Below, piece by piece: positions 4,022 through 46,825 of a stretch of 64,000 nucleotides of DNA (position 1 is its first letter; every line of letters starts with the position of its first letter). This DNA comes from a bacterium (lineage in GTDB: Bacteria > Zhuqueibacterota > Zhuqueibacteria > Residuimicrobiales > Residuimicrobiaceae): contig DAOLSP010000006.1 in NCBI GenBank assembly GCA_035419245.1, positions 66,758 to 130,757 on the forward strand, written 5' to 3'. The notes beneath the pieces are model-generated. The model made no database searches, was not told the origin of the DNA, and worked only from the letters and a program-made list of their open reading frames with translations. The position numbers and the translations under genes were made by a program.

Positions 4022-4037
4022 TCTTTCCTCCCGAGGG

Positions 4038-15680: not shown

Positions 15681-15697
15681 CGGCCAAGGGCGAAAAG

Positions 15698-15749: not shown

Positions 15750-15813
15750 GAGAGAGAGGTCCTGCTCCCATTCCGCGCGGTGGTTCAGATTTGCTCTGAA
15801 AGGAGGCCTATTC

Positions 15814-21005: not shown

Positions 21006-21143
21006 GGCCTGGAGCACAACATCACGATCTTGCTTTTTCACATCTCTCTCCATTGTCGGAAGCAGAGCAAACGGGATGGGAGAATATATAGCAATAAACA
21101 ATCCGATTCAATTCCTATTTATCATTTCCTGGAGGTACAGAAG

Positions 21144-24338: not shown

Positions 24339-24373
24339 TGGCCAGCCACCAACCTAACGAATGGGAATGCACG

Positions 24374-29002: not shown

Positions 29003-29085
29003 CCCCCGTCACCATCCAGCCCAGGGCCTGTGGCGTCTGCAACAGGCCCTATTATTAATTGCACGGTCAACCCCAGGGAGTCTCC

Positions 29086-31026: not shown

Positions 31027-33462
31027 CTATTCGCTGATGATCTGCAGCACCGCCTCCTGCAAGCCTTCCGAACGGGCGGTTAAAACGATCACGCCCGGCT
31101 CGTCGCGCGTCTGGATCACGCACAGGCATTTACCGTTGAACGCCATGCGATGGTCCGCCTTGAAGGGCTCCATGCTGGTCTGGAGGCCGTTATCGACACC
31201 GGCGATCACAGCCGGCCCCTGCAGGGAAAACTGCACCAGGTTGTCCGCCCGCGGCGCCAGGACCCCGGCGCTATCCACGACCTCGACCGTCACGAACGAA
31301 AGATCACGGCCGTCCGCCTTGATGCGATCGCGGTCGGCGGTCAGGACTATTTTTGCCGGAGCCCCGGCAGTCTGCATACGCTGCTCGAGCACTGCGCTGC
31401 CCTCCTTATAGGCCACCGCCTTGAGAAAGCCTGGTTCGAAGGGCACCCGCCAGACCAGCTGGAAGGTATCGCGGGTCTTCTCCTTTTTGCCCAGGGAACG
31501 ACCGTTGAGGAACAGCTCCACCGCACCCTGGTTGGTGTAGGCCCAAACATCGATCACCTGGCCGGATTGCCAGTTCCAATGCGGGAAGAGATGCAGCATA
31601 GGCCGGCTGGTCCATTCGGCCTGATAAAAATAGTAGCCATCCTTGGGGAAACCGGCCAGATCGATCAGGCCGAAGTAGGAGCTGCGCGCCGGCCAGGGAT
31701 AGGGCGTCGGCTCGCCGAGATAATCGAAACCGGTCCAGATAAACATGCCGGAGACATAGGGATACTCGCGCACGATCCGCCAGTTATCAGCATGGGTGGC
31801 CCCCCAGGGGACGCGGCAGTTGTCGTAAGCCGAGCAGGTGAGATCGGGATTCATCGGCCCCCGTTTGTTCCAGGCAATCGGCCAGATCCGCACGGAATCG
31901 GAGGGCATGTCATACGCGCCACGGGTGGCGATGGCGGAGTTGGTTTCGCTGGCGACTAGTTTCAGTCCCGGATAATCCTGGGGGAAGGTTCGCAGATCTT
32001 GCTCGTGATAGTTGCGGCCGACGACATCCAGAGCGCCCGAGCGGATGATGCGATTCTGCGGCGAGGGGTCGTTGCAGGCCGAGGTGATCGGTCGGGTAGG
32101 ATCGAGATCGCGGACGATTGCAGCCAGCTCTTTGGCCATCTCGATGCCGCTGTCATCCCACTGTTCGGGAATCTCGTTGCCTATGCTCCAGAGCACCACG
32201 CAAGGATGGTTGCGGTCACGCCGTATCAGATCCTCGAGATCACGGCGGTGCCATGCATCCCAATCGAGGTGATAATCGTAGGGATTCTTGGGCAGCTTCC
32301 ACATATCGTAGGCCTCGTCCATAACCAGTAAGCCCATGCGGTCGCAAAGGTCGAGCAATTCCGGCGCCGGTGGATTGTGGGAGGTACGGATGGCATTGCA
32401 GCCCATCGCCTTGAGCAGCTCGAGCTGACGCTCGAGGGCGCGCTCGTTGATCGCCGCCCCGAGGCAGCCGAGATCGTGATGGTTGCAGACCCCCAGCAGC
32501 TTCATCGCCACCCCGTTGAGGGCGAAGCCTTTCTCCAGGTCGAAAGCGATGGTGCGGATGCCAAAGGGGGTCTCGTACCGGTCCTCCTCCCGGTTTTCAG
32601 CCAGCACCCGGGTCACCGCACGATAGAGCACCGGCTTTTCGACCGACCACAAGGCCGGCTGCGTCACGGTGACGTTCCCTGATATTGGTTCAACGGCTCC
32701 CGGGGGCACACTTATCGCATTGCGCAGAGCAGCCACCCGGCGGCCAGCGGGATCGAAAACCTCGGTCATGACCGTCACCTGCTGCGAAGTCTCGCGGTCA
32801 TTGCGAACCCGGATCTGCAGGGAAATCACCGCCTGCTGCGCCGAGACTTCCGGCGTAGTGATGCAGGTGCCCCAGTGATCAACATAGACCCGGCCGGTGA
32901 GGGTCAGCCAGACATTGCGGTAGATCCCCGAGCCGGAATACCAGCGCGAATTGGGCTGCTTCGAGTTGTCGACACGCACCGCGAGGACATTCGCGGCACC
33001 ACCGAATTTCAGCCACGGTGTGAGTTCATACCGGAAGGAACTGTACCCGTAGGGCCGCTTGCCAAGGTAATGGCCGTTAATCCATACCTCACTGTTGCGG
33101 TACACGCCGTCGAAATCAATGAAAGCGCTACGGCCCATGTCCGCCTGCAGCAGCGTGAAGGTTTTGCGGTACCATCCGATGCCGCCGGGCAGGGCGCCGC
33201 CGTCGGTCGTAGCGGGGTTATCCTTGCTGAACGCCCCCTCGATGCTCCAGTCGTGGGGCAGGTTCAGGGTTCGCCAGTCACTGTCGGCGAAACCGGGTTC
33301 CTGGGCGCCAGGGAGATCCCCCAGCTTGAACTTCCAGTCTCGGGTGAAGCGCTCGATCCTCCGCGGGGACGGTCCAGGGGCGGAACACTGCATGCAGATC
33401 GTCGCCAAGGCCATAAGGGAAACCGCCATCCTAAGGGCCACCAGACTCTGATTACAGGTCAT
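31027..33462 (-). CDS. GH2 beta-galactosidase-like glycoside hydrolase, secreted
   Basis: GH2 sugar-binding, Ig-like and TIM-barrel order (NLPHDWSIEG…, WSIGNE acid). ~800 aa. Hydrophobic N-terminus. Start ambiguous: GTG at 33468, ATG at 33462 (chosen, GGAG upstream) or ATG at 33429. Confidence 0.8.
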   Translation of the reverse strand: MTCNQSLVALRMAVSLMALATICMQCSAPGPSPRRIERFTRDWKFKLGDLPGAQEPGFADSDWRTLNLPHDWSIEGAFSKDNPATTDGGALPGGIGWYRKTFTLLQADMGRSAFIDFDGVYRNSEVWINGHYLGKRPYGYSSFRYELTPWLKFGGAANVLAVRVDNSKQPNSRWYSGSGIYRNVWLTLTGRVYVDHWGTCITTPEVSAQQAVISLQIRVRNDRETSQQVTVMTEVFDPAGRRVAALRNAISVPPGAVEPISGNVTVTQPALWSVEKPVLYRAVTRVLAENREEDRYETPFGIRTIAFDLEKGFALNGVAMKLLGVCNHHDLGCLGAAINERALERQLELLKAMGCNAIRTSHNPPAPELLDLCDRMGLLVMDEAYDMWKLPKNPYDYHLDWDAWHRRDLEDLIRRDRNHPCVVLWSIGNEIPEQWDDSGIEMAKELAAIVRDLDPTRPITSACNDPSPQNRIIRSGALDVVGRNYHEQDLRTFPQDYPGLKLVASETNSAIATRGAYDMPSDSVRIWPIAWNKRGPMNPDLTCSAYDNCRVPWGATHADNWRIVREYPYVSGMFIWTGFDYLGEPTPYPWPARSSYFGLIDLAGFPKDGYYFYQAEWTSRPMLHLFPHWNWQSGQVIDVWAYTNQGAVELFLNGRSLGKKEKTRDTFQLVWRVPFEPGFLKAVAYKEGSAVLEQRMQTAGAPAKIVLTADRDRIKADGRDLSFVTVEVVDSAGVLAPRADNLVQFSLQGPAVIAGVDNGLQTSMEPFKADHRMAFNGKCLCVIQTRDEPGVIVLTARSEGLQEAVLQIISE

Positions 33463-33545
33463 AGACACTCCTGATAAAATTAAAATACCTTGAAGGACGA
33501 GTGTCCAGCAGCCACGCCCTCCCTTCCCGCGTGGCTGCGCTCTTC

Positions 33546-36392
33546 CTATTGCATCCGTACAGTGACAGGGGCACCGGTATAGGGCACTCGGGCCGCGGGC
33601 GCAGCGGTAAAATCGAGTCCGGACGGTTTCTGCCGACTCACCCAGACCACTTCAAAGGTGCGCTCCCGGAGCATGCCGGGGAATTCTCCCTGGCGCGCGC
33701 CCAGCGTCAGCTTGCGCTCCTTTTCCGACCAGGTGACCGGGATAGTCGCGTACTGCCCTTTCTCGTAATTGTAATTGACCCCTTCATCCTCGTAAAGAGT
33801 GAAGGCGCCGTCGCGGCCGGTATAGACGTAGAGGCGGATGGGATCGGGAGGCTTTTCCATAACGTATTGCACAGGCGGCCCGAAGGGGATGATCGACCCC
33901 TCGCGGACATAGAGCGGGATATCGCCCAGCGGCGCTTCGGCGACGATTTCCCGCCCGCCGGCCGCAAATTCGCCGGTCTGGAGGCGATACCATCCGGTGC
34001 CGGCAGGCAGATAGAGGGCACGGGCGCGGGCCTTGTAGGTCGTGACCGGGTTGACCAGAATCGCCGGACCGAACAGGTACTGGTCGCCGATCGATCGCAC
34101 CTTCTGGTCCTTCGGGAAATCCATAACCAGAGCGCGCATGAAGGTATAGTCCTTGAAGGTCACCTCCGCAGCCATAGAGTAGATATAGGGCAGCAGGCGA
34201 TAGCGCAGCTCGTCATAAGCCAGCATAGCCTGGTAAGCGGGATGCCCGGTGGGGGCGATGTTCCATATCTCCCGGTAGGGAAATTCGCCATGCACCCGTA
34301 GCAGAGGCACAAAGGTCCCGAACTGGAACCAGCGGGCATTGAGCTCGCGCCACTCCTCGAGATCTTCGGGTTTGACGTTGCGTTCGAAACGCGGTTCGAC
34401 CGAGAAGCCGCCGATATCCATGGTCCACCAGGGTACACCGGAGAGATTGAAATTGAGCCCGGCGGAGATCTGCGCCTTGAGGTCATACCAGCGCGTGACG
34501 ATATCGCCGCTCCAGGTGGCGGCGGCATAACGCTGCTGCCCGGCGAAGACCGAACGGGTAAGGATGAAAACCCGCTGGTTGGGCCGGGTCTTGCGCTGAT
34601 TTTCGTAGATGCCGCCCGAATGGACCAGGGTGTAGCTGTTGAGATAGCGCGAGGAAGAACCCAGGCCGGTCGGGCCGATGCGCCGCCGCGTCTCCTCGAG
34701 AGAGAGGTTACTATGGATGTCTGGTTCCGTAGCATCAAGCCACCAGGCATCGAAGCCCTTGCTGAAGAGATGTTCGTTGATCTGGTCCCAGAAGAGCTTG
34801 CGGGCCTCGTCGCGGTAGGGATCGTAGAACGAGCAGGTGTAGCCCGGGCCCACCCAGTCGCGCTCTTTGACCAGAACATTGCGCATATAGAGCCAGCCGG
34901 GATGGGCGGCGAACTCGTTGTAATGTTCGGTGCCGACGTAGAACTTGGGCCAGACCGAAATCATGATCTGTGCATGCAGGTCGTTGTGGAGCTCGTCCAC
35001 CATCCCCTTGGGATCGGGGAAGCGGCTCGGGTCGAACTCATGGCTGCCCCATTGATCCTCTTTCCAGTAGAACCAGTCGAGGACGATATTGTCGAAGGGA
35101 ATCTTGCGGGCGCGAAACTCCTTGACCACGGAAAGGAGTTCCTCCTGCGAGGTGTAGCGTTGGCGGCTCTGCCAGAGGCCCAGTGCCCATTTGGGCATCA
35201 TCGGGGCCTTGCCGGTGAGGGTGCGGTAGCCATGGATGACCTCATCGAAGCTGCCGCCATGGACGAAGTAATAGTCAATCTGATCGCCAATCTGCGACCA
35301 GAGCGAAAGCGTATTGGGCGGGGTATCCCGGTCCAACGGCAGAAATTTGAGGCCGATGTAACCGCCCATCGGAATCCATTCGATTCGGAGGTCATAGCGC
35401 TTGCCCGCGGACATCTGCAGACGTGGCAGAGTCGTCCATGGCAGCCAGTTCTGCCGGTAGCCATCGGCGACCAGATCTCCATTCAGCCACATTTTATAAA
35501 AGCCGGAGGCATAAAGGCGGAATTTGAACTCACCACTCTCCGCGGCTTCGATCTGGCCGGAATAACGAACGCTGGCGACATTTTCCCGAAATCCATCAGG
35601 ATAGGGATCATTGACATCGATGAACTCATGCTCGATACGCGGCTCGGTGCGCGCCGTAAAGAGATCCTGAAAACCCGCCGTCCGGAAATATTCAGCGGTG
35701 AGGCCTCCCAAGGTGCCGTTCTTGTCGTAGAGTTTGAGACCGGAGAGCGATTGAAAATCGCGGCAGTCGCCGAAGCGAGTCTGGGAGGTATTGTCCCAGA
35801 GGATGCCGTAATTCCGGCTCGATACCAGGAAGGGATTGACATCGAGGATGTTAAGCTGGAAGAGATCGACATCCTGCCCCTTGTAATTCATCATGTCGTT
35901 TTGTTGCTCGCCGAGGCCGTAAAAGGCCTCATCAGCCGGGGAGTGAAAGAGCTGCTGGATGTGGTCGGCCTGCTCTTCCATAACCACCGCCGGGGTGAAG
36001 CGGCGGCCGTTGGTGCGCTCGGCGAGAAGAAGCGAGCCCTTGCGGTCATAGAACGAGACCGCGCCAGTGGTCTTGTGGACCCGAACCCGCAGCTTGGCGG
36101 TGGTCAACTCCACATAGACCCCTTTGTCTCTGATGTTCCAGCTCGGAGTCCCGGCATCGAAAGCGATGCGCATCAGACTGGGACGGGCTGAAAAGGTATC
36201 GGCGGGAGAGGCCACGACGCGGATGAGCTGATCACCGCAAACCTCGATTTTGAGGCGGGCCGTACCCGATGCCAGCCTTTTGTCCAGGGTGAAAAGGAGG
36301 CCATCCGGGAGTTTCTCAAAACTGAACGCTGCCGCGGCGAGGGCGGAGATCATCCCAGCTGCCAGCGAGAGGCGGGAGCACACACGATTCAT
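33546..36392 (-). CDS. GH31 alpha-glycosidase with inserted PA14 domain (alpha-xylosidase-like)
   Basis: GH31 catalytic region (…GFDAWWLDATEP…, …WSGDI…). PA14-like insertion (YFRTAGFQDLF…YSGQIEAAESGEFKFRLYASGFYKMWLNGD). This architecture is known from xyloglucan-active alpha-xylosidases. Signal peptide present. Confidence 0.8.
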   Translation of the reverse strand: MNRVCSRLSLAAGMISALAAAAFSFEKLPDGLLFTLDKRLASGTARLKIEVCGDQLIRVVASPADTFSARPSLMRIAFDAGTPSWNIRDKGVYVELTTAKLRVRVHKTTGAVSFYDRKGSLLLAERTNGRRFTPAVVMEEQADHIQQLFHSPADEAFYGLGEQQNDMMNYKGQDVDLFQLNILDVNPFLVSSRNYGILWDNTSQTRFGDCRDFQSLSGLKLYDKNGTLGGLTAEYFRTAGFQDLFTARTEPRIEHEFIDVNDPYPDGFRENVASVRYSGQIEAAESGEFKFRLYASGFYKMWLNGDLVADGYRQNWLPWTTLPRLQMSAGKRYDLRIEWIPMGGYIGLKFLPLDRDTPPNTLSLWSQIGDQIDYYFVHGGSFDEVIHGYRTLTGKAPMMPKWALGLWQSRQRYTSQEELLSVVKEFRARKIPFDNIVLDWFYWKEDQWGSHEFDPSRFPDPKGMVDELHNDLHAQIMISVWPKFYVGTEHYNEFAAHPGWLYMRNVLVKERDWVGPGYTCSFYDPYRDEARKLFWDQINEHLFSKGFDAWWLDATEPDIHSNLSLEETRRRIGPTGLGSSSRYLNSYTLVHSGGIYENQRKTRPNQRVFILTRSVFAGQQRYAAATWSGDIVTRWYDLKAQISAGLNFNLSGVPWWTMDIGGFSVEPRFERNVKPEDLEEWRELNARWFQFGTFVPLLRVHGEFPYREIWNIAPTGHPAYQAMLAYDELRYRLLPYIYSMAAEVTFKDYTFMRALVMDFPKDQKVRSIGDQYLFGPAILVNPVTTYKARARALYLPAGTGWYRLQTGEFAAGGREIVAEAPLGDIPLYVREGSIIPFGPPVQYVMEKPPDPIRLYVYTGRDGAFTLYEDEGVNYNYEKGQYATIPVTWSEKERKLTLGARQGEFPGMLRERTFEVVWVSRQKPSGLDFTAAPAARVPYTGAPVTVRMQ

Positions 36393-37185: not shown

Positions 37186-37267
37186 TGACGGAAGCGTTTC
37201 CAGAACCCCGCGGCCATGCCCTTTGATCAATAATGAACAGATATTCATTAATAATTTGGAGACTGCC

Positions 37268-38743
37268 ATGTCCCGTTCAACACCGAAAATCCGCCTGCTA
37301 CTGGTTGCCCTGTTGCTTCCGGCGCTGGCCCTGGCGCAGTCGATGACCCTTGCGGAAGCGGTCGATACCGCGCTGCGGGGCAACGAAAAGATCCGCCAGT
37401 ATGAAGAGCGCCTCAAACAGAAAAAACAGGCGAACAAGGCCGCCTGGGGCAACTTTTTGCCCACGGCCAAGGTCGAGGCCAGTTACCGGCACCTCGATGC
37501 GCCTTTGGCAATCGACCTCGATCCCATTCGGGAGGCGATCATCACGATTCAAGCCGGGAATCAGACCGAGATGACCAACATCTATTCGCTGCTGCAGGGC
37601 AAAGCGCCCTTGAGCGCGGCGCAGCGCCAGGCCTTGAATGGACAGTATTATGGCGCTCTGGACGGCTTGCTGCCGCCCTTTTCGGAAACCCTGAAGAAGC
37701 AGGATTATCCGAGTGCCGCGCTGGTCGGGGTGCAGCCGCTCTTTGTCGGCGGCAAGCTGATCGCCGCCAAGAAATATGCTGCGGCCGAGGAGGAAGCCGC
37801 GGCGGCCGAGCTGATCCAAGTCCGCAACCAGGTTTTCAAGCAGGCGGCCAACGACTATTTTGCTGTCGCCCTGCTCCAGCAGGTAGTCGCCACGCGCGCC
37901 GACGTGCTCGAGGGCATGAAACGCCACCGCCTGGATGCCCAGCGTCTCTTTGAGGAAGGCCTCATCCCCCGCTATCACCTGTTGCGGGCAGAGGTAGCGG
38001 TGGCCGATGCGGAACGCAACCTCCTCGATGACCAGAACAAGCTCGACCTGGCACGCATCGCCCTCGCCCATACCCTGGGTCTGGAGTCCGCATCTGTTTT
38101 ATTGGCTGCGGATACCCTTGCTTACACTGCCGCCGGTGACTCGCTCGACGCGCTCATCTATTCAGCGCAGGAGAACCAGCCCCTGTTGCATCTGGTAGCG
38201 ATGAAACAGCGCGCAGCCCGGCAAAACTATGCGGTCGCCCGCTCCGAACTGCTTCCGGAGGTGGCCGGTTTCGGCAAGTATGAGCTCTATCCGGAGTATC
38301 TATCGGCACTGGAACCGCGCTGGGTTGTCGGGATCCAAGCCAACTGGACCCTTTTTAACGGCCTGAAAAGGATGCATGCGCTCCAGCAATCGGTTCATCT
38401 TGAGCGCGAGGTCGAGCATATTCAGAAGGATGCCCGGCAGCAGGTGGATCTGTGGGTGCAAAAGGCATGGCGGGATGCAGCCAATGCCCGCTCTCGTTAT
38501 GAAAAGCTCGCCACCACCCTGGCTCTGGCGGACGAGAATCTACGTCTCAATGACAAACGCTTCCAATCGGGTTTAGGCACCTCTCTGGAGGTGGTGGACG
38601 CCCGCCTCTCGCAGGAGCGCATCCGCATGGAACGACTGAGCTCATTGCAGGCCTATTACTCCGCCCTGGCCGACATCTATATCGCCGCCGGCAAACCCGA
38701 AGCCCTACTGAAAGTCTGGAACCGGAACAAGCAGGTCGATTAA
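37268..38743 (+). CDS. TolC-like outer-membrane efflux protein
   Basis: Signal peptide MSRSTPKIRLLLVALLLPALALAQS. Two OEP-like repeats with coiled-coil regions. 491 aa. GGAG RBS. Confidence 0.8.
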   Translation: MSRSTPKIRLLLVALLLPALALAQSMTLAEAVDTALRGNEKIRQYEERLKQKKQANKAAWGNFLPTAKVEASYRHLDAPLAIDLDPIREAIITIQAGNQTEMTNIYSLLQGKAPLSAAQRQALNGQYYGALDGLLPPFSETLKKQDYPSAALVGVQPLFVGGKLIAAKKYAAAEEEAAAAELIQVRNQVFKQAANDYFAVALLQQVVATRADVLEGMKRHRLDAQRLFEEGLIPRYHLLRAEVAVADAERNLLDDQNKLDLARIALAHTLGLESASVLLAADTLAYTAAGDSLDALIYSAQENQPLLHLVAMKQRAARQNYAVARSELLPEVAGFGKYELYPEYLSALEPRWVVGIQANWTLFNGLKRMHALQQSVHLEREVEHIQKDARQQVDLWVQKAWRDAANARSRYEKLATTLALADENLRLNDKRFQSGLGTSLEVVDARLSQERIRMERLSSLQAYYSALADIYIAAGKPEALLKVWNRNKQVD

Positions 38744-38783
38744 AACACCATCAAGCGCCGGTGCGCCGGCTGGAGGAAATTGT

Positions 38784-39761
38784 ATGAAATCAAATGCCAA
38801 ATCCATATTACTGGTCCCGGCGATGATCGCCCTGATCGCGGCCATGACCCTGGTCATCCGCGCTTTTACGGCGAACAAAGTCGTTCTGACCGGCCAGGTT
38901 GAATGCACCGAAGTGGACGTTGCCTCCAAGCTCCCAGGACGGATGGACTCTATTTTTGTGCAGGAAGGATCGCCGGTACGGCGCGGACAGGTGCTGGCGC
39001 GGCTGCAGAGCCGGGAAATCGACGCCAAGGTGGAGCAAGCCCGCGCCCAGATGGCCGCCGCCCGGGCCAAATGGGAGATGGCGCGTCATGGCGCCCGCCC
39101 CGAGGAGAAGGAACAGGCCGCCAAGGGTTATGAGACCGCCAGGCATCAGTTCGAGCTCGCGGAAAAGACCTGGAACCGCATCAGCTCCGTCTATCGCGAC
39201 AGCGTCATCTCGACTCAGGAGCACGATCAAGTCGAATTCCAGTACAAGGCAGCGAAGGAACAGCTCGATGCCGCCCACGCCCGATACCAGATGGTGCTCA
39301 AAGGCGTGCGCAGTGAGGAGATACAGGCTGCCGAGGCGCTCTATCATCAAGCCGAGCAGGGGTTGGCCGAGGCGCTGGCCTATCAAGATGAGACCCTGAT
39401 CAAAAGCCCCTTGGATGGTGAGGTTTTCAAACGGATCAGCGATCCTGGCGAGATCGTCGCCGCCGGTTATCCGATCTTCACGCTGGTCGATCCGAAGGAT
39501 GTTTGGGTGATCCTGCAGGTACGCGAGGACCAGATGGCCTCGATTAGGAAGAATCAGATGATGGAGGTAGTCATTCCAGCTTTGGGCCCTGAGCGACACC
39601 CTTTCAAGGTGACCCAGATCGCCGCGATGGCGGACTTTGCCACCTGGCGCGCTACCAATCAGAAGGGTGACTTTGACATCAAGACTCTTGAAATCCACCT
39701 GCGCCCGCAGAAGGAAATTGCGGGGCTCATTCCGGGCATGACTGCCCGGGTGACGCTGTAA
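38784..39761 (+). CDS. HlyD-family membrane-fusion (periplasmic adaptor) protein
   Basis: N-terminal TM anchor, biotinyl/lipoyl-like hairpin, long coiled coil, beta-barrel domain. 325 aa. Confidence 0.8.
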   Translation: MKSNAKSILLVPAMIALIAAMTLVIRAFTANKVVLTGQVECTEVDVASKLPGRMDSIFVQEGSPVRRGQVLARLQSREIDAKVEQARAQMAAARAKWEMARHGARPEEKEQAAKGYETARHQFELAEKTWNRISSVYRDSVISTQEHDQVEFQYKAAKEQLDAAHARYQMVLKGVRSEEIQAAEALYHQAEQGLAEALAYQDETLIKSPLDGEVFKRISDPGEIVAAGYPIFTLVDPKDVWVILQVREDQMASIRKNQMMEVVIPALGPERHPFKVTQIAAMADFATWRATNQKGDFDIKTLEIHLRPQKEIAGLIPGMTARVTL

Positions 39762-39784
39762 CCGGCCAGAATAGAGAACACCCT

Positions 39785-40993
39785 ATGACAGACTATCTCA
39801 ATGCGGTGCGACGGATCATGGTACGGGAATGGCGCCGGATCGCCAACCGCAAAAATCTCTACCTATTGATGATCATCCTGCCGGTCATCCTCTTTGTCTT
39901 TGTCGCCGCCATCTACCGCAATGAGGTGGTCAAGGCTCTACCCGTGGCGGTGTTGGACGCCGACCAGTCGGAACTCTCACGGAGCCTGGTGCGCGCGGTC
40001 GCTGCCGATCGGCTTTTTCGGATCACCTCCGAAGTGCATTCCCCCGCCGATATCGAGGAGGCGATGCGTGCCGGCCGGATCCAGGGGGCTTTTTACCTGC
40101 CGGAAGGGATGGAGCGGGATATCAAGCAGGGGGTGCCGGCCCGGATGGTCGTCTACCGCAACCATATCAACCTGCTCTCGGGCAACATGATCTACAAGGA
40201 GGCGGCGACGATCGGCCGTATGGCCTCCGCTGCGATTCTTGTCAAAAAACTGGAAGGGCGCGGACTGGGTGCCGGCCAGGCCATGGCCCTCGCCAATCCG
40301 GTCAGTGTGGATACCCAGGCTCTTTTCAACCCCTCCTACAACTATGCCAACTATCTGGTTCCAGGACTGCTGCCGGCCTTCATGCAGATGTTCATCATGC
40401 TGGTGGCGGTGCTGGTGATCTCCGCAGAGTACCACGAAGGGACGCTCGCCGAGCTTTTCGCAGCGGCAGATGGCCATGCCGGGGTGGTATTGCTCGGCAA
40501 ATCCTTACCGCATCTGCTGGTATATGGCGCCATGGCGCTTGGCTTGTTGGGGATTGTCTTCCCGATTTTTCATATTCCCGTGGCGGCCCCGGCCGTGGTC
40601 ATCCTCGGACTCTTCCTGCTCTTCATCGCCGCCTCATTCTTTCTCGGTCTGATGATTTCCTGCCTGGTGCATAACCAGATGCTGGCGACTGAAGTGGCCG
40701 TCTTCATCAACACGCCGGCCTTCATGTTCAGTGGTTATACCTTCCCCCTTTGGGGGATGCCAGTCATCCACCGCGCCTTTGCACAGATCATGCCCTTCAC
40801 CCATTTCCTTACCGGATTCATCAAACTCTATCAGATGGGCGCGCCACTGCACAGCCTGCGCAATGAGGTGATGATCCTAGCGCTGTTCGTCGCCGTGCCT
40901 GCGGCAGTCAGCTGGACTTTGCTTCACTACCATTGCCGTCACCTTCCGGTGCTGCAGTCGGAGCAGCAAAGCGGAAAAGGAGGCATGCTATGA
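39785..40993 (+). CDS. ABC-2 family permease (no ATPase domain)
   Basis: 402 aa. One N-terminal TM, a large periplasmic loop, then about five C-terminal TMs: YhhJ/ABC-2 topology. No Walker motifs. Confidence 0.75.
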   Translation: MTDYLNAVRRIMVREWRRIANRKNLYLLMIILPVILFVFVAAIYRNEVVKALPVAVLDADQSELSRSLVRAVAADRLFRITSEVHSPADIEEAMRAGRIQGAFYLPEGMERDIKQGVPARMVVYRNHINLLSGNMIYKEAATIGRMASAAILVKKLEGRGLGAGQAMALANPVSVDTQALFNPSYNYANYLVPGLLPAFMQMFIMLVAVLVISAEYHEGTLAELFAAADGHAGVVLLGKSLPHLLVYGAMALGLLGIVFPIFHIPVAAPAVVILGLFLLFIAASFFLGLMISCLVHNQMLATEVAVFINTPAFMFSGYTFPLWGMPVIHRAFAQIMPFTHFLTGFIKLYQMGAPLHSLRNEVMILALFVAVPAAVSWTLLHYHCRHLPVLQSEQQSGKGGML

Positions 40994-42180
40994 TCCAGTC
41001 CAAGATCCATGGCTGGTGGTCGGTCGTGCGCCGGGAGGTCCGCCGTATCCACAGTGATACCAACATCTTTGTGGTGATTCTGCTCGCGCCGCTATTTTAT
41101 GCCTTCTTCTATGGCTCCATCTACAGTCTGAAGAGTGAATGGGATGTGCCCATTGCCATTGTGGATCAGGACCATTCGCAGGTGGCGCGCGACCTGATCC
41201 GCTACCTCGACAGCAGCAAGCTGGTGCGCATTGCTGAACAGCCTGCCACCTATGCCGAAGCGGTTGCGGGGCTCATGGAGATGCGGGTTCATGGCATCGT
41301 CTATATCCCGGAGGATTTTAGCGTGCAGATTAAAAGAGGCCGCACCGCGCATCTTCCGGTGTATCTCAATACCAGCCGCTTTCTCATCGCCAATGACATC
41401 AGCAAGGCCGTCGCCGAGGTCAGCGGTACCCTGGCGGGCGGGATCCGGTTGCACTTCTTTGAGAGTGCAGGTTTCAGCCGGGCGCAGGCACTCGAAATGA
41501 TCGAACCCCTGGAGGTCGAGCACAAGGCGCTTTTTAACCCGACCGACAGCTATGGTGATTTTCTTATCCCCGGACTGCTGGTGATGATTCTCCAGCAGAC
41601 CCTGCTCATCGGGCTCGCCGAGAGTGTGGCCAAGGAGCGTGAATTTGGCACACTGGGTGAGCTCTACCGGATTTCCGGCAAGAGCACCTGGGCGGTGATG
41701 AGCGGCAAGGGATTCTTTTATCTCGTCCTCTATCTGGCCTATGCCTTCTTTTTCTATGGCTCTCTTTTTGCGCTTTTCAGGATCCCTTTCCGCGGCAGCA
41801 TCACGGCATTGGCGCTGTTGACGGTGCTCTTTTTACTCGCTGTGATTTATTTCAGCCTCTTTATCTCCTCCTTTTTCGGCAAAAAGATCGTCGCCATGCA
41901 GTTCTTCGTCTTCACCTCCTACCCCCTGTTCCTGCTCTCCGGATACAGCTGGCCGCTGGATTCCATGCCCTGGGCGGTGCGAAGCTTCAGTCAGCTGTTA
42001 CCCTGCACCCCCTATTTACAGGCCTTTGTCCGGATCACACAAATGGGCGCGGGATGGCGGCATGTCAGCGGGGAGTTCCTCCATCTCGCTCTGTTGACGC
42101 TCATCGGGCTGGCTGTGGCGCGCTGGAGGATACGGGGGCAGCTGCGCGGCGTCTTCTATGAAAAAAAGAGCCAGGATTAG
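40990..42180 (+). CDS. ABC-2 family permease, paralog (no ATPase domain)
   Basis: AAGGAGG RBS. ATG overlaps the upstream stop (ATGA). Same topology as the preceding gene. The ORF track shows a 19-codon N-terminal extension. Confidence 0.75.
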   Translation: MIQSKIHGWWSVVRREVRRIHSDTNIFVVILLAPLFYAFFYGSIYSLKSEWDVPIAIVDQDHSQVARDLIRYLDSSKLVRIAEQPATYAEAVAGLMEMRVHGIVYIPEDFSVQIKRGRTAHLPVYLNTSRFLIANDISKAVAEVSGTLAGGIRLHFFESAGFSRAQALEMIEPLEVEHKALFNPTDSYGDFLIPGLLVMILQQTLLIGLAESVAKEREFGTLGELYRISGKSTWAVMSGKGFFYLVLYLAYAFFFYGSLFALFRIPFRGSITALALLTVLFLLAVIYFSLFISSFFGKKIVAMQFFVFTSYPLFLLSGYSWPLDSMPWAVRSFSQLLPCTPYLQAFVRITQMGAGWRHVSGEFLHLALLTLIGLAVARWRIRGQLRGVFYEKKSQD

Positions 42181-42198: not shown

Positions 42199-42240
42199 GG
42201 CCGGTGATTGCGGGATCGCAGTCACCGGCCTTTTCTTTTA
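42199..42240. terminator. Bidirectional terminator between the efflux operon (+) and the minus-strand operon
   Basis: GGCCGGTGAttgcgggatcgcagTCACCGGCC followed by ttttctttt. Confidence 0.7.
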
Positions 42241-42927
42241 AAAGCAGGTTTGCAGGGAGAAGAGGCAGCGGGGCTGGAAGACCCCATCGCCGAAGTGCAG
42301 GTTAAAGTGTGTGTGACTGGCGAGGTTTTTATTGTGGCGGTTGACGCTCCAGACCGCATCTATGGCGCTGACCAGGTGGTTGGCGAGGATAGCGCCGAGA
42401 ACGAAGGTGGAGCGGTTGCGCGCCTTCTCGGAGGCGATGCGTATCTGGTCGAAATGGGCCTTGTTGGCGGCCGTGTCCCATTTCCAGTAATAGCGCGCCG
42501 TGTCCTGATAATAGTCCTCCAGATTACGCTGGCGCAGCTTGGCGGCGTTATACTGGCCGATATCGGCATAGTTGCCGATATTGGTGTAATAGGTATCGTT
42601 CTTGCCCTTCGGATCCACTCCGGCATGCCGGGCGGCGAAACTCTCATATTCATCACGCCGCCAGCCGGAATAGGTCACAAAGCCAGTATAGCCCAGCCAC
42701 AAGCTGATCTCGGTCCCGAGAAAGATGTAGGATTTGGTGGTTGCATCGGCGTAGCGCTCACCGAGCCCGGGCAGCAGGAAAGAGAGCATCATGGCCTTGC
42801 CCCTGGACTTGGCGGCGAGTGCCAGCGGATCGCTCGTCTCCTCCTGCATGGCGAATCCGCCGCTGATGCCCTGCGGCGCCGCGGCCAAAAGTAAAGCCAT
42901 ACCGATCCAGAATGCGATTCGCTTCAT
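42238..42927 (-). CDS. Secreted hypothetical protein, paralog of the next gene
   Basis: Signal peptide MKRIAFWIGMALLLAAAPQG. Shares blocks with 42933..43754: LLPGLGERY vs IVPGAGQVY; LWLGYTGF vs SWYLYSGY; LANHLVSAIDAVWSVNRHN vs LNHMTSALEAAFSVSRHN. Confidence 0.6.
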   Translation of the reverse strand: MKRIAFWIGMALLLAAAPQGISGGFAMQEETSDPLALAAKSRGKAMMLSFLLPGLGERYADATTKSYIFLGTEISLWLGYTGFVTYSGWRRDEYESFAARHAGVDPKGKNDTYYTNIGNYADIGQYNAAKLRQRNLEDYYQDTARYYWKWDTAANKAHFDQIRIASEKARNRSTFVLGAILANHLVSAIDAVWSVNRHNKNLASHTHFNLHFGDGVFQPRCLFSLQTCF

Positions 42928-42932
42928 AGGGC

Positions 42933-43754
42933 TCACCAATCTACGCGAAGAGTGAGCGCGCTGTAGTGCTTCTGGTCCATCTGCCGCGGCTCGAAATAGA
43001 GACGGGCCTCGGCGACTTCCCGGTTATGCCGGCTGACGCTAAACGCCGCTTCGAGGGCGCTGGTCATATGGTTGAGGATGACCACGGTCAGGCAGGTCGT
43101 TGCGTGCTTGAAATTCCGGTTGCTGGCGTCGCGACGGGTTTCGTAATAGAGCCGCCGCGGCGACCGAATCTGATCCTTGAGATAAGTCATCTTGTCCGTT
43201 GGACTCGGGGTGGTCGTATAAATGTCATTCCAGCCATAGTTGAACTGGTTATACTTGCCGATCATTTCGTAGTACTGCTGGTCTTTGGTCAAATGCAGAC
43301 CATGGCTGAAATTGAGGTGTTCCCACTCGCGCAGCGCTTCGATATCGCCGACTGGTTTGCCGGACATCGAGGCAATGGCTTGCCAGTATTTTTCTTCGCT
43401 CCAGTTGGAATCGGCATACTTTTCATATTCGTCCTCGATATCCTGACCCTTGCCCTGATACCCACTGTAGAGATACCAGCTCGCCGCTTCGACGGCGAGG
43501 AAGCCGAGGGCTTTGAGGTAGGAGCCGTCGTAAACCTGGCCGGCGCCCGGAACGATAGCGGAGAACAGGAGGGCTTTGCCGGGTTTTTTGAGGGCGACAT
43601 AGGCGTCCGCGGACTCGGCCGTCGAGTCTTGCAGCATGGCGGTATCGGCCAGGGCCAGCCGGGTACGCGGGCTATCGAGGATGAAATCCTGCCAATCTCC
43701 TGCTTGTGCGACGGCCGCCAGCGCCAGGAGGGCGGCCAGAAAGACCTTCTTCAT
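42933..43754 (-). CDS. Secreted hypothetical protein, paralog
   Basis: GGAAGGGAG RBS. Signal peptide MKKVFLAALLALAAVAQAG. Blocks shared with the preceding gene (see 42238..42927). Confidence 0.65.
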   Translation of the reverse strand: MKKVFLAALLALAAVAQAGDWQDFILDSPRTRLALADTAMLQDSTAESADAYVALKKPGKALLFSAIVPGAGQVYDGSYLKALGFLAVEAASWYLYSGYQGKGQDIEDEYEKYADSNWSEEKYWQAIASMSGKPVGDIEALREWEHLNFSHGLHLTKDQQYYEMIGKYNQFNYGWNDIYTTTPSPTDKMTYLKDQIRSPRRLYYETRRDASNRNFKHATTCLTVVILNHMTSALEAAFSVSRHNREVAEARLYFEPRQMDQKHYSALTLRVDW

Positions 43755-43771
43755 CTGCAACTCCCTTCCGA

Positions 43772-46700
43772 TCAATCCATAAAGTCAAACAAGGCCATCA
43801 GGTAGTACCGCCATTCGCGGCCGTACTGCTGTCCGCCGTTCTCGACGCGGTCCAGCCCATAGGCGGCCTCGAAGGAGAGGGCGGTCGGGAAACCATAAAA
43901 GGAGAAAGCACCTGCGCGCAAGGAGCCGCCGATGGCGCGTTTGAAGCGGTTGAGATCCACACGGTCCGCATCAAACGCGTTGCCATAGTCGAAAAAGGCG
44001 CCCAGGACGAGATTATCCCCGGTCAAGTGCAGGAACTGCTTCTGGAAGCCGGTCAGCACGGGAAGTCGGTAGGTGAAGCGGCCGATAAGCATCTTGCGTC
44101 CCTCGATGCTGTAATAGGGGTAGCCGCGCAATCCGGGGAGGCCGCCGGCAAAAAAATTAAAAAAGCTGTCGACTGGACGATCGATCCAGCCCGCCTGGAG
44201 GTTGGCGGAGAGGCCATGCCGGTGTGCCCAGGGCGCCGGCAGATACTCGTGCCAGTTCACTTCCAGCTTGTGGTAGTTGTAATGGGCATAAACCTCCTGA
44301 AGCGTGCCGTAGCTGTTGTCGGTAGCGAAATCCTCGAAAAAGCGGTTGCGCTCGTATCCATAGCGCACCTCAGCCTTGCGGCCCAACCGTGGGTTGATGC
44401 CGGAGGTCACTCCGGGGGCTACTGCGGAGAGATTCCAGGTGGCGGAGAACTGGTTGCCGATGAAATAGGTGTTCGCCGGCGAGACCCAGTCGATTCCCTT
44501 GAAGAAGAAATTGCCGATCTTGCTGGTGTAGCGGCTGTGGGCAAAAGCAGCGCGCAGGGTTTGCCCCTCCGCGAGATTGATCCGGCCGCCAAGATCGGCT
44601 TCGAGGATATTGAAGCGGATATCCACCCCGGCCTTGATAGGATAATCCTCAATGACCTCGATATCGCGCTTGATGTGTCGCGAGAAGGCGTAGAGCTCGA
44701 CGAAGAGGGTGGGTTTAAAACGGCGCATTTCTGCGATTGCAAAGGCATCGAGATCCATCTGCTTGTTGAGGGTCGCGCCGCCGAAAATGGAGTAACGGTC
44801 GAGGATGTCGCTGGCCGCGAAATAGCTGCCGAGTTTAAGGGTCTTGTAGTCGATCATCGCCCGCGGGAGCAGGGAGATCTGGCCGTAGGTCATCTCGTAG
44901 GGCTCGGCCTTGTATTCGGGCAGGCGGGTATCGTCGTAATCGCGCAGGGCCATCAGGTCGGCGGGGGTTTCCGACTCGGTCAATCCCAGTTCGTCCGCGT
45001 TGTCCGCTTGGGGATAGCGGGCCCACGTTGCAGGTACGGGCTTCGCGCTGCGCAACCGGGCGATCTTGTAGCCGTCGTGCTGAAATTCCGACCAGGCCAG
45101 GTCCCCTGTGCTTGCAACGGTGGGCATAAAAGCCCCGCCTGCTGTATTGGTCCACAGCTGCAAATCACCGCCGTCGGGCCGAATGCTGTAGATATTGAAA
45201 ATGCCGCTCTTGTCCCAGGCAAAGTAGATCCGCTGGCCGTCGGGAGCATAAACGGGATCGCGGGCATCGCCACCCTCGGCCACCAGGGCATGGCGTTCAC
45301 CGGTCGCGACATCGAGCAGAACCAACTCCCGCCCGTGGCGGTTCGCCTGGGAGTAGACGATCGACCGGCCATCCGGCGAGAAGCGGGGTGAATTGACCGC
45401 CTCGCCCTCGCTGAAGGTGGTCAACGGGCGGATCAATGCTCCCTCGGCATCCAGGAGCACCAGATTATCGGTGCCGTCCTTCTGCACGGCGCAAACGATG
45501 CTCCGGCCATCCGGCGCCAGATCGGGGGCAAAAGCGCGCATCCGCCGGGTGAGCCGTTTTTCCTTGCCGCTGTTGAGATCGTACCGAAAGAGGTCGCTGA
45601 GATGGGAACCGTACCGGCCGCGCTCGATGCGGCAGTAATAGAGCGACCGGCCGTCCGGGCTCCAGGCGAGCTGACTGTTAACACCGCGCTTGAGTACCTT
45701 TTTTTTGCCTGTGATGGCATCATAGAGGCAGAGATGGGTGAGGCTGAGGTAATCGTTGGCTTCGCTGCCGCAGAAAGCGAGCTGTTTGCCGTCCGGTGAC
45801 CAGGCAGCACCGGTGTTGCCCAATCCCTTGGGAGTGAGAATCTCGATCGCGACGCGATGGGAGTCGATGACCGCCAGGCGCTGGGCGTAATAACGCTGCA
45901 TCTGCGCCTGCCACTGCTGATACAGGCTCTCGCCATCCAGGCCGGTCACCTCCTTTAGGGCGCCATTCGCGGTGAAAGAGAGCGGGCTCGAGAGGCCTTC
46001 GCTCAGCTTTCGCAACGCCTCGCGGCCGTGTTGCCGGACGATGTACCGGATCAAGGCATAGCCGGAATTATAGGTTCGTTCGTTACCCAAGCTGGTCTTG
46101 CCAAAAACGCCCATCTCGTCATAGGTCAGCGCCTTGCCGGCAGTGATGGCGGTGCGGATGAGCATGTCCCGATGGCTGTCCCAGAGATCGTACTGGAGAC
46201 CGGGGATCTGCATCTGGGCCATGCCTTCGGCTATCCACATCGGCACGGCGGTCATGGCGATGGGATAGGAGGCGATGATATTGGGATAGCCATAAAGGAC
46301 ATCCTCGCGCTTTTCCGGTTCGTAGCTGAACATCTGCAGATAGAGGGCGGGGATCTTGCGGGGCATCTTGCGCGCCGCCCCGAGCGAGATCATGTGACTG
46401 AATTCGTGGGTGACGACGTTGCGCAGCCAGTCGTGGGTGCCGCGCAGGATGAAGGTCATTTGTGGCGACCAAATCTCGACCTTGTTGTCGTAGTAAAAGG
46501 CGGCGCCGTTAGAGTTGTCGTCGTAATCCTTGACAATGAAATGGATCAATCCGTTCGGGCGGTATCGATAGAGCGTGGTGATCGGTCCATAAATCTCCTC
46601 GGCCACTTTAGCGACCGTGCGGGCCGTGCGCTCGGCGCCTTCATGGAAATGAACCTCAAAGTGCTCGGTCCGGATCGTATACCAATCCAGTTCGGGATGG

Positions 46701-46825
46701 TTGATGGGCTCCTCCTGGCCGAAGAGCAGGGATGCAGGAAGCAATATCAGCAGCAGACAGGTTATGAGGAGATCTCGGTTTCTAGTGCGTCTCATTTTTG
46801 AAAGTACCCTGGGGTCATGTGCCAT
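43772..46825 (-). CDS. Large exported fusion protein: peptidase-MA-like zinc metalloprotease, TolB-like beta-propeller, Omp85-like beta-barrel
   Basis: Signal peptide (from the MRRTRNRDLLITCLLLILLPASLLFGQ start at 46795, or the upstream ATG at 46825). HEFSHM zinc motif with downstream WIAEGMAQ. Repeated SPDGK/SPDGR/APDGR propeller blades. C-terminal ~400 aa with FAGGLPGLRGYPYY…GRFTYRLPV and LGAFFDYGNAF motifs resembling the Omp85/Bac_surface_Ag barrel. No POTRA-like segment. Confidence 0.7.
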   Translation of the reverse strand: MAHDPRVLSKMRRTRNRDLLITCLLLILLPASLLFGQEEPINHPELDWYTIRTEHFEVHFHEGAERTARTVAKVAEEIYGPITTLYRYRPNGLIHFIVKDYDDNSNGAAFYYDNKVEIWSPQMTFILRGTHDWLRNVVTHEFSHMISLGAARKMPRKIPALYLQMFSYEPEKREDVLYGYPNIIASYPIAMTAVPMWIAEGMAQMQIPGLQYDLWDSHRDMLIRTAITAGKALTYDEMGVFGKTSLGNERTYNSGYALIRYIVRQHGREALRKLSEGLSSPLSFTANGALKEVTGLDGESLYQQWQAQMQRYYAQRLAVIDSHRVAIEILTPKGLGNTGAAWSPDGKQLAFCGSEANDYLSLTHLCLYDAITGKKKVLKRGVNSQLAWSPDGRSLYYCRIERGRYGSHLSDLFRYDLNSGKEKRLTRRMRAFAPDLAPDGRSIVCAVQKDGTDNLVLLDAEGALIRPLTTFSEGEAVNSPRFSPDGRSIVYSQANRHGRELVLLDVATGERHALVAEGGDARDPVYAPDGQRIYFAWDKSGIFNIYSIRPDGGDLQLWTNTAGGAFMPTVASTGDLAWSEFQHDGYKIARLRSAKPVPATWARYPQADNADELGLTESETPADLMALRDYDDTRLPEYKAEPYEMTYGQISLLPRAMIDYKTLKLGSYFAASDILDRYSIFGGATLNKQMDLDAFAIAEMRRFKPTLFVELYAFSRHIKRDIEVIEDYPIKAGVDIRFNILEADLGGRINLAEGQTLRAAFAHSRYTSKIGNFFFKGIDWVSPANTYFIGNQFSATWNLSAVAPGVTSGINPRLGRKAEVRYGYERNRFFEDFATDNSYGTLQEVYAHYNYHKLEVNWHEYLPAPWAHRHGLSANLQAGWIDRPVDSFFNFFAGGLPGLRGYPYYSIEGRKMLIGRFTYRLPVLTGFQKQFLHLTGDNLVLGAFFDYGNAFDADRVDLNRFKRAIGGSLRAGAFSFYGFPTALSFEAAYGLDRVENGGQQYGREWRYYLMALFDFMD

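Follow-up and report, generated by a model that had tools for sequence, protein, structure and literature searches.

Omp85 proteins serve universally as the machinery by which outer membranes are built or crossed, and several of their subfamilies that lack POTRA domains were catalogued in 2014 and flagged in 2024 as intriguing targets (PMC4104836 for the catalogue). The window, i.e. the whole stretch of 64,000 nucleotides analysed here, encodes one such protein, which raises the question of what an Omp85 barrel does when it carries a zinc peptidase and a β-propeller in place of POTRA domains, and on which side of the outer membrane these domains lie. A preliminary description had taken the architecture for new, and proposed either a self-inserting, surface-exposed protease or a specialised Omp85 that engages the adjacent FadL/PorV-like barrels.

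Domain organisation and family membership

The protein is preceded by a signal peptide with a hydrophobic core at residues 16–38 and a predicted mature N-terminus at Q37 as judged by hydropathy, and no lipobox Cys was found in this signal peptide. The predicted Gln37 at +1 is consistent with the Bacteroidetes ‘Q-rule’ of a Gln at this position, reportedly described by Bochtler in 2018. By searching 1.84 billion representatives, complete matches of ~980–1180 aa with a C-terminal barrel were obtained, so the barrel is tied to its N-terminal region. The features of the protein and its operon are collected in Table 1.

Table 1. Features of the Omp85-peptidase gene and its operon, in the direction of transcription (coordinates of the window)
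Feature	Coordinates	Strand	Basis or content
PorV, T9SS outer-membrane shuttle, FadL-like barrel, first operon gene	51307..52410	-	NF033709 298.7 bits, NF033710 231 bits
M6-like pseudo-protease, FG-GAP repeats, T9SS type-A C-terminal sorting domain (CTD)	48125..51199	-	NF052323 502 bits, TIGR04183
Extra PorV/PorQ-family paralogue, 417 aa	46832..48085	-	NF033709 40 bits; 29% identity to PorV, E 8e-26
Omp85-peptidase, whole ORF, 1017 aa	43772..46825	-	signal peptide, gluzincin peptidase, six-bladed PD40 propeller, linker, Omp85 barrel
Sec signal peptide, residues 1–36	46718..46825	-	hydropathy; family consensus ..AQ..
Clan MA gluzincin-type metallopeptidase domain, residues 37–325	45851..46717	-	Pfam Peptidase_MA_2 in 49/49; AF2 secondary structure
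HEFSH zinc-binding/catalytic motif (H140, E141, H144), residues 140–144	46394..46408	-	conservation
WIAEGMAQ helix with E200, putative third zinc ligand, residues 197–204	46214..46237	-	conservation; AF2 model
Six-bladed PD40/TolB-like β-propeller, residues 326–592	45050..45850	-	
Linker of 58 residues (593–650), non-POTRA	44876..45049	-	least conserved part, 32% identity
16-strand Omp85-superfamily β-barrel, residues 651–1017	43775..44875	-	
L6-type loop motif FFAGGLPGLRGYPYY, counterpart of BamA/TamA (V/I)RG(F/Y)	44111..44155	-	alignment to TamA FFAGGDQSVRGYDY
FFDYGNAF, strand-13 motif, counterpart of Omp85 (F/G)xDxG, residues 944–951	43973..43996	-	aligns with TamA FVDQGNAF
DUF5683-like exported protein, 280 aa	42933..43775	-	PF18935 31.1 bits
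Second DUF5683-like paralogue, 233 aa, last operon gene	42238..42939	-	paralogy comparison
14-bp GC-rich hairpin between convergent genes	42199..42230	.	

The architecture has been named since 2014. Heinz & Lithgow 2014 defined a ‘WD40-Omp85’ (‘WD40-like’) subfamily by PD40 repeats plus PF01103 without POTRA, and the about 100 members in their Table S3 gave Phyre2 matches to the BamA/TamA barrel, to TolB and to an N-terminal M1/M9-type, aminopeptidase/collagenase-like region, the listed taxa including Caldithrix, Ignavibacterium, Melioribacter, Cloacimonas and Rhodothermus (PMC4104836). Their text leaves the peptidase undiscussed, gives no gene context and proposes a ‘BamA-BamB fusion’ (PMC4104836); the subfamily was called uncharacterised in papers of 2024 (PMC11116518, PMC11358297). 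In the protein studied here, a PD40 propeller lies N-terminal of an Omp85 barrel without POTRA and an M1/M9-like gluzincin region occupies the extreme N-terminus; no architectural difference from WD40-Omp85 was seen, and the taxa overlap, with full-length syntenic orthologues in Caldithrix sp. (L021), Melioribacter sp. (L075) and Ignavibacteria. It is a member of this POTRA-less subfamily, and the supposed novelty of the architecture falls away. Literature searches on Omp85, PD40, T9SS, DUF5683 and PorU/PorV in other FCB phyla returned no characterisation of the family or the operon.

An intact gluzincin site and a six-bladed propeller

The HExxH and downstream Glu read earlier from the sequence do form an intact gluzincin site. 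In the AF2 secondary structure, H140, E141 and H144 lie on a helix (133–150) and E200 on a later one (196–205), i.e. the clan MA(E) pattern, and the four residues were unchanged in 49/49 full-length homologues and in 81/81 genomic relatives sharing 37–68% identity. All 49 family members matched Pfam Peptidase_MA_2 (best E-value 2e-12), the window protein itself scoring 27.8 bits, under the gathering cut-off of 32.4, and Peptidase_M9 matched weakly in three of the 49. Per-domain comparison gave the peptidase the highest conservation (mean identity 63.6%), which together with the invariant residues suggests that the active site is under selection. No other HExxH occurs in the operon.

The TolB-like propeller was likewise found as described, with PD40 repeats arranged in six blades, and was matched by Pfam Tricorn_N, Tricorn_2nd, DPPIV_N and Peptidase_S9_N. 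In a Foldseek search of the PDB with the full-length model, the top 50 matches were all propellers, so the C-terminal domain was modelled separately.

An Omp85 barrel without POTRA domains

The C-terminal domain is a barrel of 16 transmembrane strands of the BamA/TamA/Sam50 type, and these are its closest structural relatives, in agreement with the Omp85 assignment made beforehand. LRGY at residues 899–902, aligning with VRGY of TamA, is placed inside the 882–910 loop between strands 11 and 12 (loop pLDDT 50–59), and its [R/K]-G-Y is kept in 80/81 relatives; in the strand-13 motif, G948 and A950 are invariant among 49 homologues. Against PF01103 the window protein scored 18.2 bits (gathering score 24), and 15/49 close relatives matched at E≤0.01 (best 9.2e-10). 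A phmmer search with the barrel gave zero matches among PDB sequences and reached no canonical BamA or TamA among 1.84 billion representatives; TamA was reached only by a 9-sequence barrel profile. The protein does end in LFDFMD without a terminal aromatic, as had been pointed out, but this is a minor family quirk that extends two residues beyond a normal β-signal: the family consensus GxLFxFxD contains a GxxΦxΦ β-signal-like motif, with F1013 kept in 79/81 relatives, and because GxLFxF is conserved, the missing aromatic has little meaning.

None of the 49 members matched a POTRA Pfam family at E≤0.01. A cryptic POTRA between propeller and barrel was rejected because the 58-residue linker is too short and its AF2 secondary structure, a pair of short helices and a single strand of three residues, departs from the β-α-α-β-β pattern. 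Both the Pfam scan and the linker structure thus bear out the lack of N-terminal POTRA domains. Where BamA and TamA have POTRA domains, this protein has an enzyme and a propeller, and the equivalog scores, 12.2 bits for TIGR03303 (BamA; cut-off 297) and 11.6 for NF047950 (TamA; cut-off 625), are negligible. TolB (TIGR02800) was matched at 105.9 bits versus a cut-off of 343 and over the propeller part only. With scores so far below the cut-offs, the protein was rejected as the organism's BamA and as a TolB orthologue; it is also without the N-terminal TolA-binding domain of TolB, and Tol-Pal genes are absent from its gene context.

A conserved gene order with PorV and an M6-like protein

The operon genes are 6 nt apart or overlapping, the start of the 280-aa DUF5683-like gene overlapping the stop codon of the Omp85-peptidase gene, and the hairpin downstream of the last gene is likely a terminator-like operon end. 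No HExxH was found in the M6-like neighbour. Among the loci compared, the 417-aa PorV/PorQ-family paralogue is present in the window and in L004 only and is a lineage-specific insertion. Three T9SS CTD proteins are encoded within the window, and none of the NCBIfam T9SS models matched the Omp85-peptidase itself.

The order PorV, M6-like (CTD), Omp85-peptidase and DUF5683-like was found in about 60 genomes of the FCB superphylum, spanning at least six phyla (KSB1, Calditrichota, Ignavibacteria, Marinimicrobia, Latescibacteria and Kryptonia). PorV was syntenic with the Omp85-peptidase gene in 58 of the 62 genomes having enough flank, the M6-like gene lay directly upstream of it in 64/67 loci and a DUF5683-like gene directly downstream in 62/68, and the second DUF5683-like gene was detected in 29/61. 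The conserved association is therefore one with T9SS genes, i.e. PorV and the CTD-bearing M6-like gene. Recent shared ancestry was rejected as its source because the genes flanking the cluster differ between loci and the synteny persists down to 37% identity. Of some 65 relatives whose flanks are complete, three (L049, L061 and L080) are stand-alone genes in unrelated contexts. The WD40-Omp85 accessions tabulated by Heinz & Lithgow presumably include members from Vibrio, Myxococcales and Geobacter, which are not known to have a T9SS; together with the stand-alone copies, this indicates that the fold as such is not T9SS-specific.

Of the proposal that the protein engages the adjacent barrels, the part concerning the neighbours stands, as these are PorV-family proteins kept in synteny, and the synteny suggests a partnership with PorV. 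A physical association may be supposed by precedent: in the BAM of Bacteroidota, BamA binds the FadL-fold OMP BamG, and the T9SS genes porG and skpA lie at the bamA locus (PMC12611786). This is a similar Omp85 and FadL-fold pairing in FCB bacteria, but BamG is not PorV.

The N-terminal domains probably face the periplasm

From topology rules and model confidence, the peptidase and propeller are predicted to face the periplasm. The RGY loop corresponds to the extracellular loop L6 of Omp85 proteins and connects strands 11 and 12 of the 16; strand 1 would accordingly begin at the opposite, periplasmic face, and the N-terminal domains would be found there as well. In separate models, the linker had a pLDDT of about 86–95 with the N-terminal domains and of 58–66 without them; being confident only in their presence, it is probably not threaded through the lumen. 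The sole non-POTRA Omp85 passenger tested so far, that of PlpD, is periplasmic (PMC11116518). PlpD of the PL-Omp85 group likewise combines an Omp85 barrel with an N-terminal hydrolase, which is periplasmic, but it has one POTRA and a phospholipase and forms homodimers, whereas the present protein has no POTRA and bears a zinc peptidase and a propeller (Hanson et al. 2024, PMC11116518). The loop topology, the linker and the PlpD precedent all oppose the suggested self-inserting, surface-exposed protease, and a self-exported protease on the cell surface is unlikely.

A proposed propeller-gated peptidase in a PorV-centred module and its alternatives

We favour, with moderate confidence, the reading that the protein is a zinc peptidase gated by its propeller, anchored in the outer membrane, facing the periplasm and linked in function to the PorV/T9SS module. 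After Sec export and removal of the signal peptide, the C-terminal 367 residues would form the 16-strand barrel in the outer membrane, serving as membrane anchor and docking surface, and the N-terminal 555 residues, a predicted competent HExxH...E peptidase packed on the propeller, would hang from strand 1 into the periplasm. The propeller may restrict access to the peptidase site to unfolded chains or peptides. BepA is a BAM-associated M48 metalloprotease, and tricorn and the S9 family are propeller-gated serine peptidases. To BepA the protein would be a functional analogue, i.e. a periplasmic zinc protease at an Omp85 machine, with no M48 sequence relationship; to tricorn and S9 the analogy lies in the propeller limiting access to the peptidase site, those being serine peptidases and this one of the zinc type. 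The gene is probably co-transcribed, and is co-inherited, with those for PorV, the protease-dead M6-like cargo of the T9SS and two DUF5683-like proteins. The peptidase would most likely act within this PorV-centred module, where it would process or clear envelope or T9SS-related polypeptides that are unfolded or stalled, and the protein would not be a general BamA-type insertase. Against such a T9SS-linked role, cargo of the T9SS is folded when it passes through the periplasm and loses its CTD outside the cell, which leaves no obvious T9SS substrate on the periplasmic side.

A rather unlikely alternative is a BAM/TAM-like insertase, in which the lateral gate would assemble particular OMPs, such as barrels of the PorV family or the translocon of the T9SS, the propeller would stand in for POTRA/BamB as the scaffold on which substrates dock, and the peptidase would dispose of failed clients, amounting to a fusion of BamA, BamB and BepA. 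BamA, TamA and Sam50 as nearest structural relatives, the conserved L6 RGY and strand-13 motifs, which are needed for BamA function, the two PorV-family barrels encoded in the operon and the ‘BamA-BamB fusion’ already proposed (PMC4104836) all speak for it. The negligible BamA and TamA equivalog scores, the failure of the phmmer barrel search to reach either canonical protein and the absence of POTRA speak against it; moreover, conservation is strongest in the peptidase rather than in the barrel, and PlpD exemplifies an Omp85 barrel able to serve a non-insertase role (PMC11116518).

We regard as unlikely that the protein is a general periplasmic oligopeptidase with a nutritional or housekeeping role that is simply tethered to the outer membrane, in which case its gene would stay close to PorV because envelope genes are regulated together and not because they share a mechanism. 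Propeller-peptidase pairs such as tricorn, DPP-IV and S9 typically degrade oligopeptides, and the matching Pfam families were found; stand-alone copies exist, and the subfamily presumably extends to phyla not known to have a T9SS. However, a five-gene order maintained in several phyla, at 37–68% identity and with differing flanks, would be difficult to account for if the genes were not functionally coupled, and the barrel keeps its Omp85 functional motifs instead of having decayed to a mere anchor.

In the porU-porV loci of Bacteroidia, porU adjoins porV. An N-terminal part that leaves the cell through or beside its own barrel, in the manner of an autotransporter or a two-partner system, and works outside, possibly as a CTD-removing PorU analogue for T9SS cargo where the PorV-adjacent protein is a dead protease, would suit the tight synteny, the M6-like gene in porU's place and the HExxH lost there and retained here, but is very doubtful. 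The Omp85 topology puts the N-terminus in the periplasm, and with L6 plugging the 16-strand barrel, a folded peptidase-propeller of 555 residues could not get through; nor is the linker predicted in the lumen. The N-terminal region is globular, unlike the β-helical or extended passengers of type V systems, and the POTRA-bearing TpsB-type barrel (PF03865) of two-partner systems is absent. The passenger of PlpD, for many years taken to be secreted, is located in the periplasm (PMC11116518).

Implications for T9SS outside Bacteroidia

More speculatively, and at low probability, the favoured peptidase could be an unrecognised outer-membrane component of the T9SS secretion/attachment machinery in non-Bacteroidia FCB phyla: the barrel would dock PorV laterally, as in BamA-BamG, the dead M6-like CTD protein would be a surface-retained, PorU/PorZ-like scaffold, and the zinc peptidase would supply the missing proteolysis, e.g. 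by freeing PorV of CTDs or cargo that have been cleaved or have stalled. If true, this would be the first Omp85 member working in T9SS and the first function for a WD40-Omp85 protein.

What is new at this locus is thus the gene context rather than the architecture, namely the fixed order of PorV, M6-like, Omp85-peptidase and DUF5683 genes. This order suggests T9SS-associated envelope proteolysis as a candidate function of the subfamily, and bears on the organisation of T9SS outside Bacteroidia, where experimental data are few.

Domain organization and the peptidase site

The protein under study is encoded by a single ORF in a tight operon on the minus strand: only 6 nt separate its start from the preceding stop codon, and at its other end its stop overlaps the start of the next gene. 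The N-terminus carries one strongly hydrophobic segment by hydropathy (residues 16-38), followed by LLFG/QEEP, with no lipobox cysteine there and with A-Q as the family consensus at the predicted cleavage point. These features fit a Sec signal peptide leaving a mature Gln end, as reportedly stated by the Bacteroidetes Q-rule of Bochtler in 2018 (cited in PMC11285876).

AlphaFold2, given 49 full-length homologues, produced a confident model (mean pLDDT 88.2, pTM 0.86) that resolved four parts (see table). H140-E-F-S-H144 falls on helix 133-150 and E200 (WIAEGMAQ) on helix 196-205 of the model. Pfam Peptidase_MA_2 matched 49/49 family members (best E-value 2e-12), although the window protein itself, at 27.8 bits, stayed under the gathering threshold of 32.4. 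H140, E141, H144 and E200 were invariant in the 49 full-length homologues and in 81/81 genomic relatives that are 37-68% identical, and mean identity was highest in the peptidase domain (63.6%, versus 53.3% in the barrel, 48.8% in the propeller and 32.2% in the linker). Together, the motif helices, the Pfam matches, the invariant residues and the top conservation point to a predicted working gluzincin-type zinc peptidase in the first domain, and the alignments show its site under strict purifying selection. The propeller carries [S/A]PDG motifs at residues 343, 389, 437, 483 and 527, and matches the Pfam families of tricorn, DPP-IV and S9 peptidase propellers.

Features of the operon, of the encoded Omp85-peptidase and of other genes in the window
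Feature	Position	Strand	Evidence or content
Biotin carboxylase, GatB/GatA	53240-58658	-	upstream of porV
PorV	51307-52410	-	NF033709 298.7 bits; NF033710 231 bits
M6-like protein, 1024 aa	48125-51199	-	NF052323 502 bits; FG-GAP repeats; type-A T9SS sorting domain
PorV/PorQ-family paralogue, 417 aa	46832-48085	-	29% identity to operon's PorV, E 8e-26
Omp85-peptidase, 1017 aa	43772-46825	-	
Alpha/beta peptidase domain	residues 37-325		AlphaFold2 model
Six-bladed PD40 propeller	residues 326-592		AlphaFold2 model; Pfam PD40 E 1.7e-24
Linker	residues 593-650		AlphaFold2 model; two short helices, one 3-residue strand; poorly conserved
Barrel, sixteen long beta-strands	residues 651-1017		AlphaFold2 model
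DUF5683-like exported protein	42933-43775	-	paralogue of second copy
Second DUF5683-like exported protein	42238-42939	-	25% identity to first, E 1e-14
14-bp GC-rich hairpin with T-runs	42199-42230		between two convergent gene ends
TolC-like OEP, HlyD-like adaptor, two ABC-2-type permeases	37223-42180	+	convergent with operon
T9SS CTD protein	29059-31017	+	no other Pfam domain
T9SS CTD protein	16967-18898	+	no other Pfam domain
SusC-like TonB-dependent receptor (1102 aa), then 770-aa ORF	21030-26647	+	CarboxypepD_reg in receptor
GH31	33546-36392		near SusC-like gene
GH2	31027-33468		near SusC-like gene
Alpha-amylase	9334-11394		near SusC-like gene

A POTRA-less Omp85 barrel of a catalogued subfamily

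The barrel is an Omp85 barrel, although its sequence similarity to known ones is faint. A loop of 29 residues joining strands 11 and 12 carries FFAGGLPGLRGYPYY, and this L6-type loop with the conserved RGY (residues 890-910) is strongly conserved in sequence despite the lowest pLDDT of the barrel (~50-59 in both AF2 models). By phmmer the barrel matched no PDB sequence, and among 1.84 billion representatives it reached only 257 proteins, the complete ones being 980-1180 aa with a C-terminal barrel, and no canonical BamA or TamA. A 9-sequence barrel profile matched TamA only (E 1e-3 to 7e-3), aligning exactly the two Omp85 signature motifs, those of loop L6 (FFAGGlpGlRGY versus FFAGGDQSVRGY) and strand 13 (FlDYGNAF versus FVDQGNAF). 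Pfam PF01103 matched 15/49 relatives (best E-value 9e-10), the window protein scoring 18.2 bits against a cut-off of 24. POTRA families matched 0/49 family members, and a cryptic POTRA in the linker was rejected, the segment being neither long enough nor of the right secondary structure. The protease-like domain, propeller and barrel of the preliminary description were confirmed by the model, Pfam, the invariant HExxH/Glu and the TamA alignment, and so was the lack of POTRA. The ending LFDFMD indeed lacks the terminal aromatic, but this is typical of the family, whose consensus reads GxLFxFxD: F1013 is kept in 79/81 relatives, and the C-terminus amounts, as judged from sequence, to a putative normal GxxPhi-x-Phi beta-signal plus two extra residues.

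The architecture, though real, is not new and had already been catalogued. Heinz & Lithgow (2014) divided the Omp85/TpsB superfamily into ten subfamilies, of which 'WD40-Omp85', or 'WD40-like', has a Pfam profile of one to five PF07676 plus PF01103 without POTRA (PMC4104836). The ~100 members in their Table S3 gave Phyre2 matches to BamA/TamA (~100% confidence) and TolB (100%), and the column 'best aminopeptidase hit' lists tricorn factor F3 1z5h, 4kxd and ERAP1 3qnf (~99%), as well as the collagenase peptidase domains 4ar1/4ar9 (~99%) (PMC4104836). Two papers of 2024 describe the subfamily as still uncharacterised, with 'divergent WD40 and peptidase domains' (PMC11358297), and as not well characterised, 'intriguing targets' (PMC11116518). 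A literature search found no further paper mentioning it; the subfamily is experimentally untouched. Orthologues of the window protein were found in the same lineages as the Table S3 members, which include Caldithrix abyssi, Ignavibacterium album, Melioribacter roseus, Cloacimonas, Rhodothermus and Salinibacter.

A conserved gene order across phyla

Relatives turned up in >571 species when one genome per species was scanned, and the best 80 loci were full-length at 37-68% identity, from KSB1, Calditrichota, Ignavibacteria/Melioribacteraceae, Marinimicrobia, Latescibacteria, Kryptonia and unclassified 'Bacteroidota' MAGs. In tblastn of the neighbouring window proteins against these 80 loci, with each count restricted to those of sufficient flank, the M6-like gene lay directly upstream on the same strand at 64/67 loci and a DUF5683-like gene directly downstream at 62/68, with a second one detectable at 29/61. 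PorV was further upstream at 58/62 loci, which backs in spirit the link to FadL/PorV-like barrels proposed in the preliminary description, whose interpretation is thus partly supported. Outside this PorV–DUF5683 block, the genes vary between loci. The 417-aa PorV paralogue between the M6-like gene and the Omp85-peptidase is a lineage-specific duplication, because no locus other than the window and its closest relative, L004, carries it; unlike PorV, it has no terminal aromatic residue. The window and L003, from a KSB1 genome whose Omp85-peptidase is only 57% identical, have similar gene sets upstream of porV (in L003:1-5599, GatB, EF-P, AccB/AccC and glycine-cleavage genes), so in some of the phylum the synteny reaches past the operon. 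The literature search found no publication on this gene order.

NF052323 denotes a 'T9SS-dependent M6-like inactivated metalloprotease', and HExxH is absent from the 1024-aa protein, so that it is a predicted pseudo-protease. The Omp85-peptidase is thereby shown to have a tight and ancient linkage with PorV and with a T9SS cargo that has lost its own catalytic motif. In Bacteroidia, porU adjoins porV, and the M6-like gene, between PorV and the Omp85-peptidase, occupies a comparable place. Two further CTD proteins in the window indicate that the organism uses a T9SS. Common to both DUF5683-like proteins are a signal peptide, a PGxGQ/E hydrophobic hairpin and, as in outer-membrane proteins, an aromatic residue (W or F) at the C-terminus; the sole paper found mentioning DUF5683 is unrelated. 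Elsewhere in the window, the SusC-like receptor and the GH31, GH2 and alpha-amylase genes suggest a polysaccharide-utilisation neighbourhood, in which the 770-aa ORF, without a Pfam match, is possibly the SusD-like partner.

Stand-alone copies among unrelated genes occur at three loci (L049, L061 and L080). L049 adjoins TatC, ArsA and carbamoyltransferase genes, and L080 is flanked by a 2203-aa ORF (3200-9811, -) and a TIR-domain gene (15213-16187, +). Such copies, and WD40-Omp85 members in phyla without T9SS, would suit a housekeeping oligopeptidase with incidental synteny to PorV, which we consider quite unlikely.

Probable membrane topology and proposed function

To our knowledge, L6 is extracellular in all solved Omp85 proteins; with the RGY loop joining strands 11 and 12 of the 16, strand 1 would begin at the periplasmic face. 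Linker pLDDT was ~86-95 with the N-terminal domains modelled versus 58-66 without them, suggesting that the linker packs on those domains and not in the lumen. We infer from the model and by analogy that the N-terminal domains are periplasmic, as is PlpD, the sole non-POTRA Omp85 'passenger' tested so far (PMC11116518). A surface-exposed protease, as the preliminary description also proposed, or a PorU analogue is very unlikely. Its attraction is that the PorV-adjacent M6-like protein is dead while the Omp85-peptidase keeps a live motif, but exposure conflicts with this topology.

An insertase like BAM that carries its own quality-control protease, a reading near to the BamA-BamB fusion suggested by Heinz & Lithgow (PMC4104836), is unlikely. 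We favour, with chances we judge about even, an outer-membrane-tethered, periplasm-facing peptidase, whose task in a module centred on PorV would be the processing or clearance of unfolded polypeptides. The Omp85 barrel of the exported protein would sit in the outer membrane with peptidase and propeller facing the periplasm; by analogy with tricorn, DPP-IV and S9 peptidases, the propeller may gate the site, limiting it to unfolded chains or peptides, and the barrel would probably serve as anchor and docking surface beside PorV-family barrels. In Bacteroidota, BamA has the FadL-fold OMP BamG as a binding partner, and T9SS genes lie at the bamA locus (PMC12611786). The substrate is the weakest point of the favoured reading, since T9SS cargo is already folded while in the periplasm and its CTD is removed only outside the cell. 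To the known subfamily these results add a conserved PorV / M6-like / Omp85-peptidase / DUF5683 module, through which the function of WD40-Omp85 proteins becomes directly testable.
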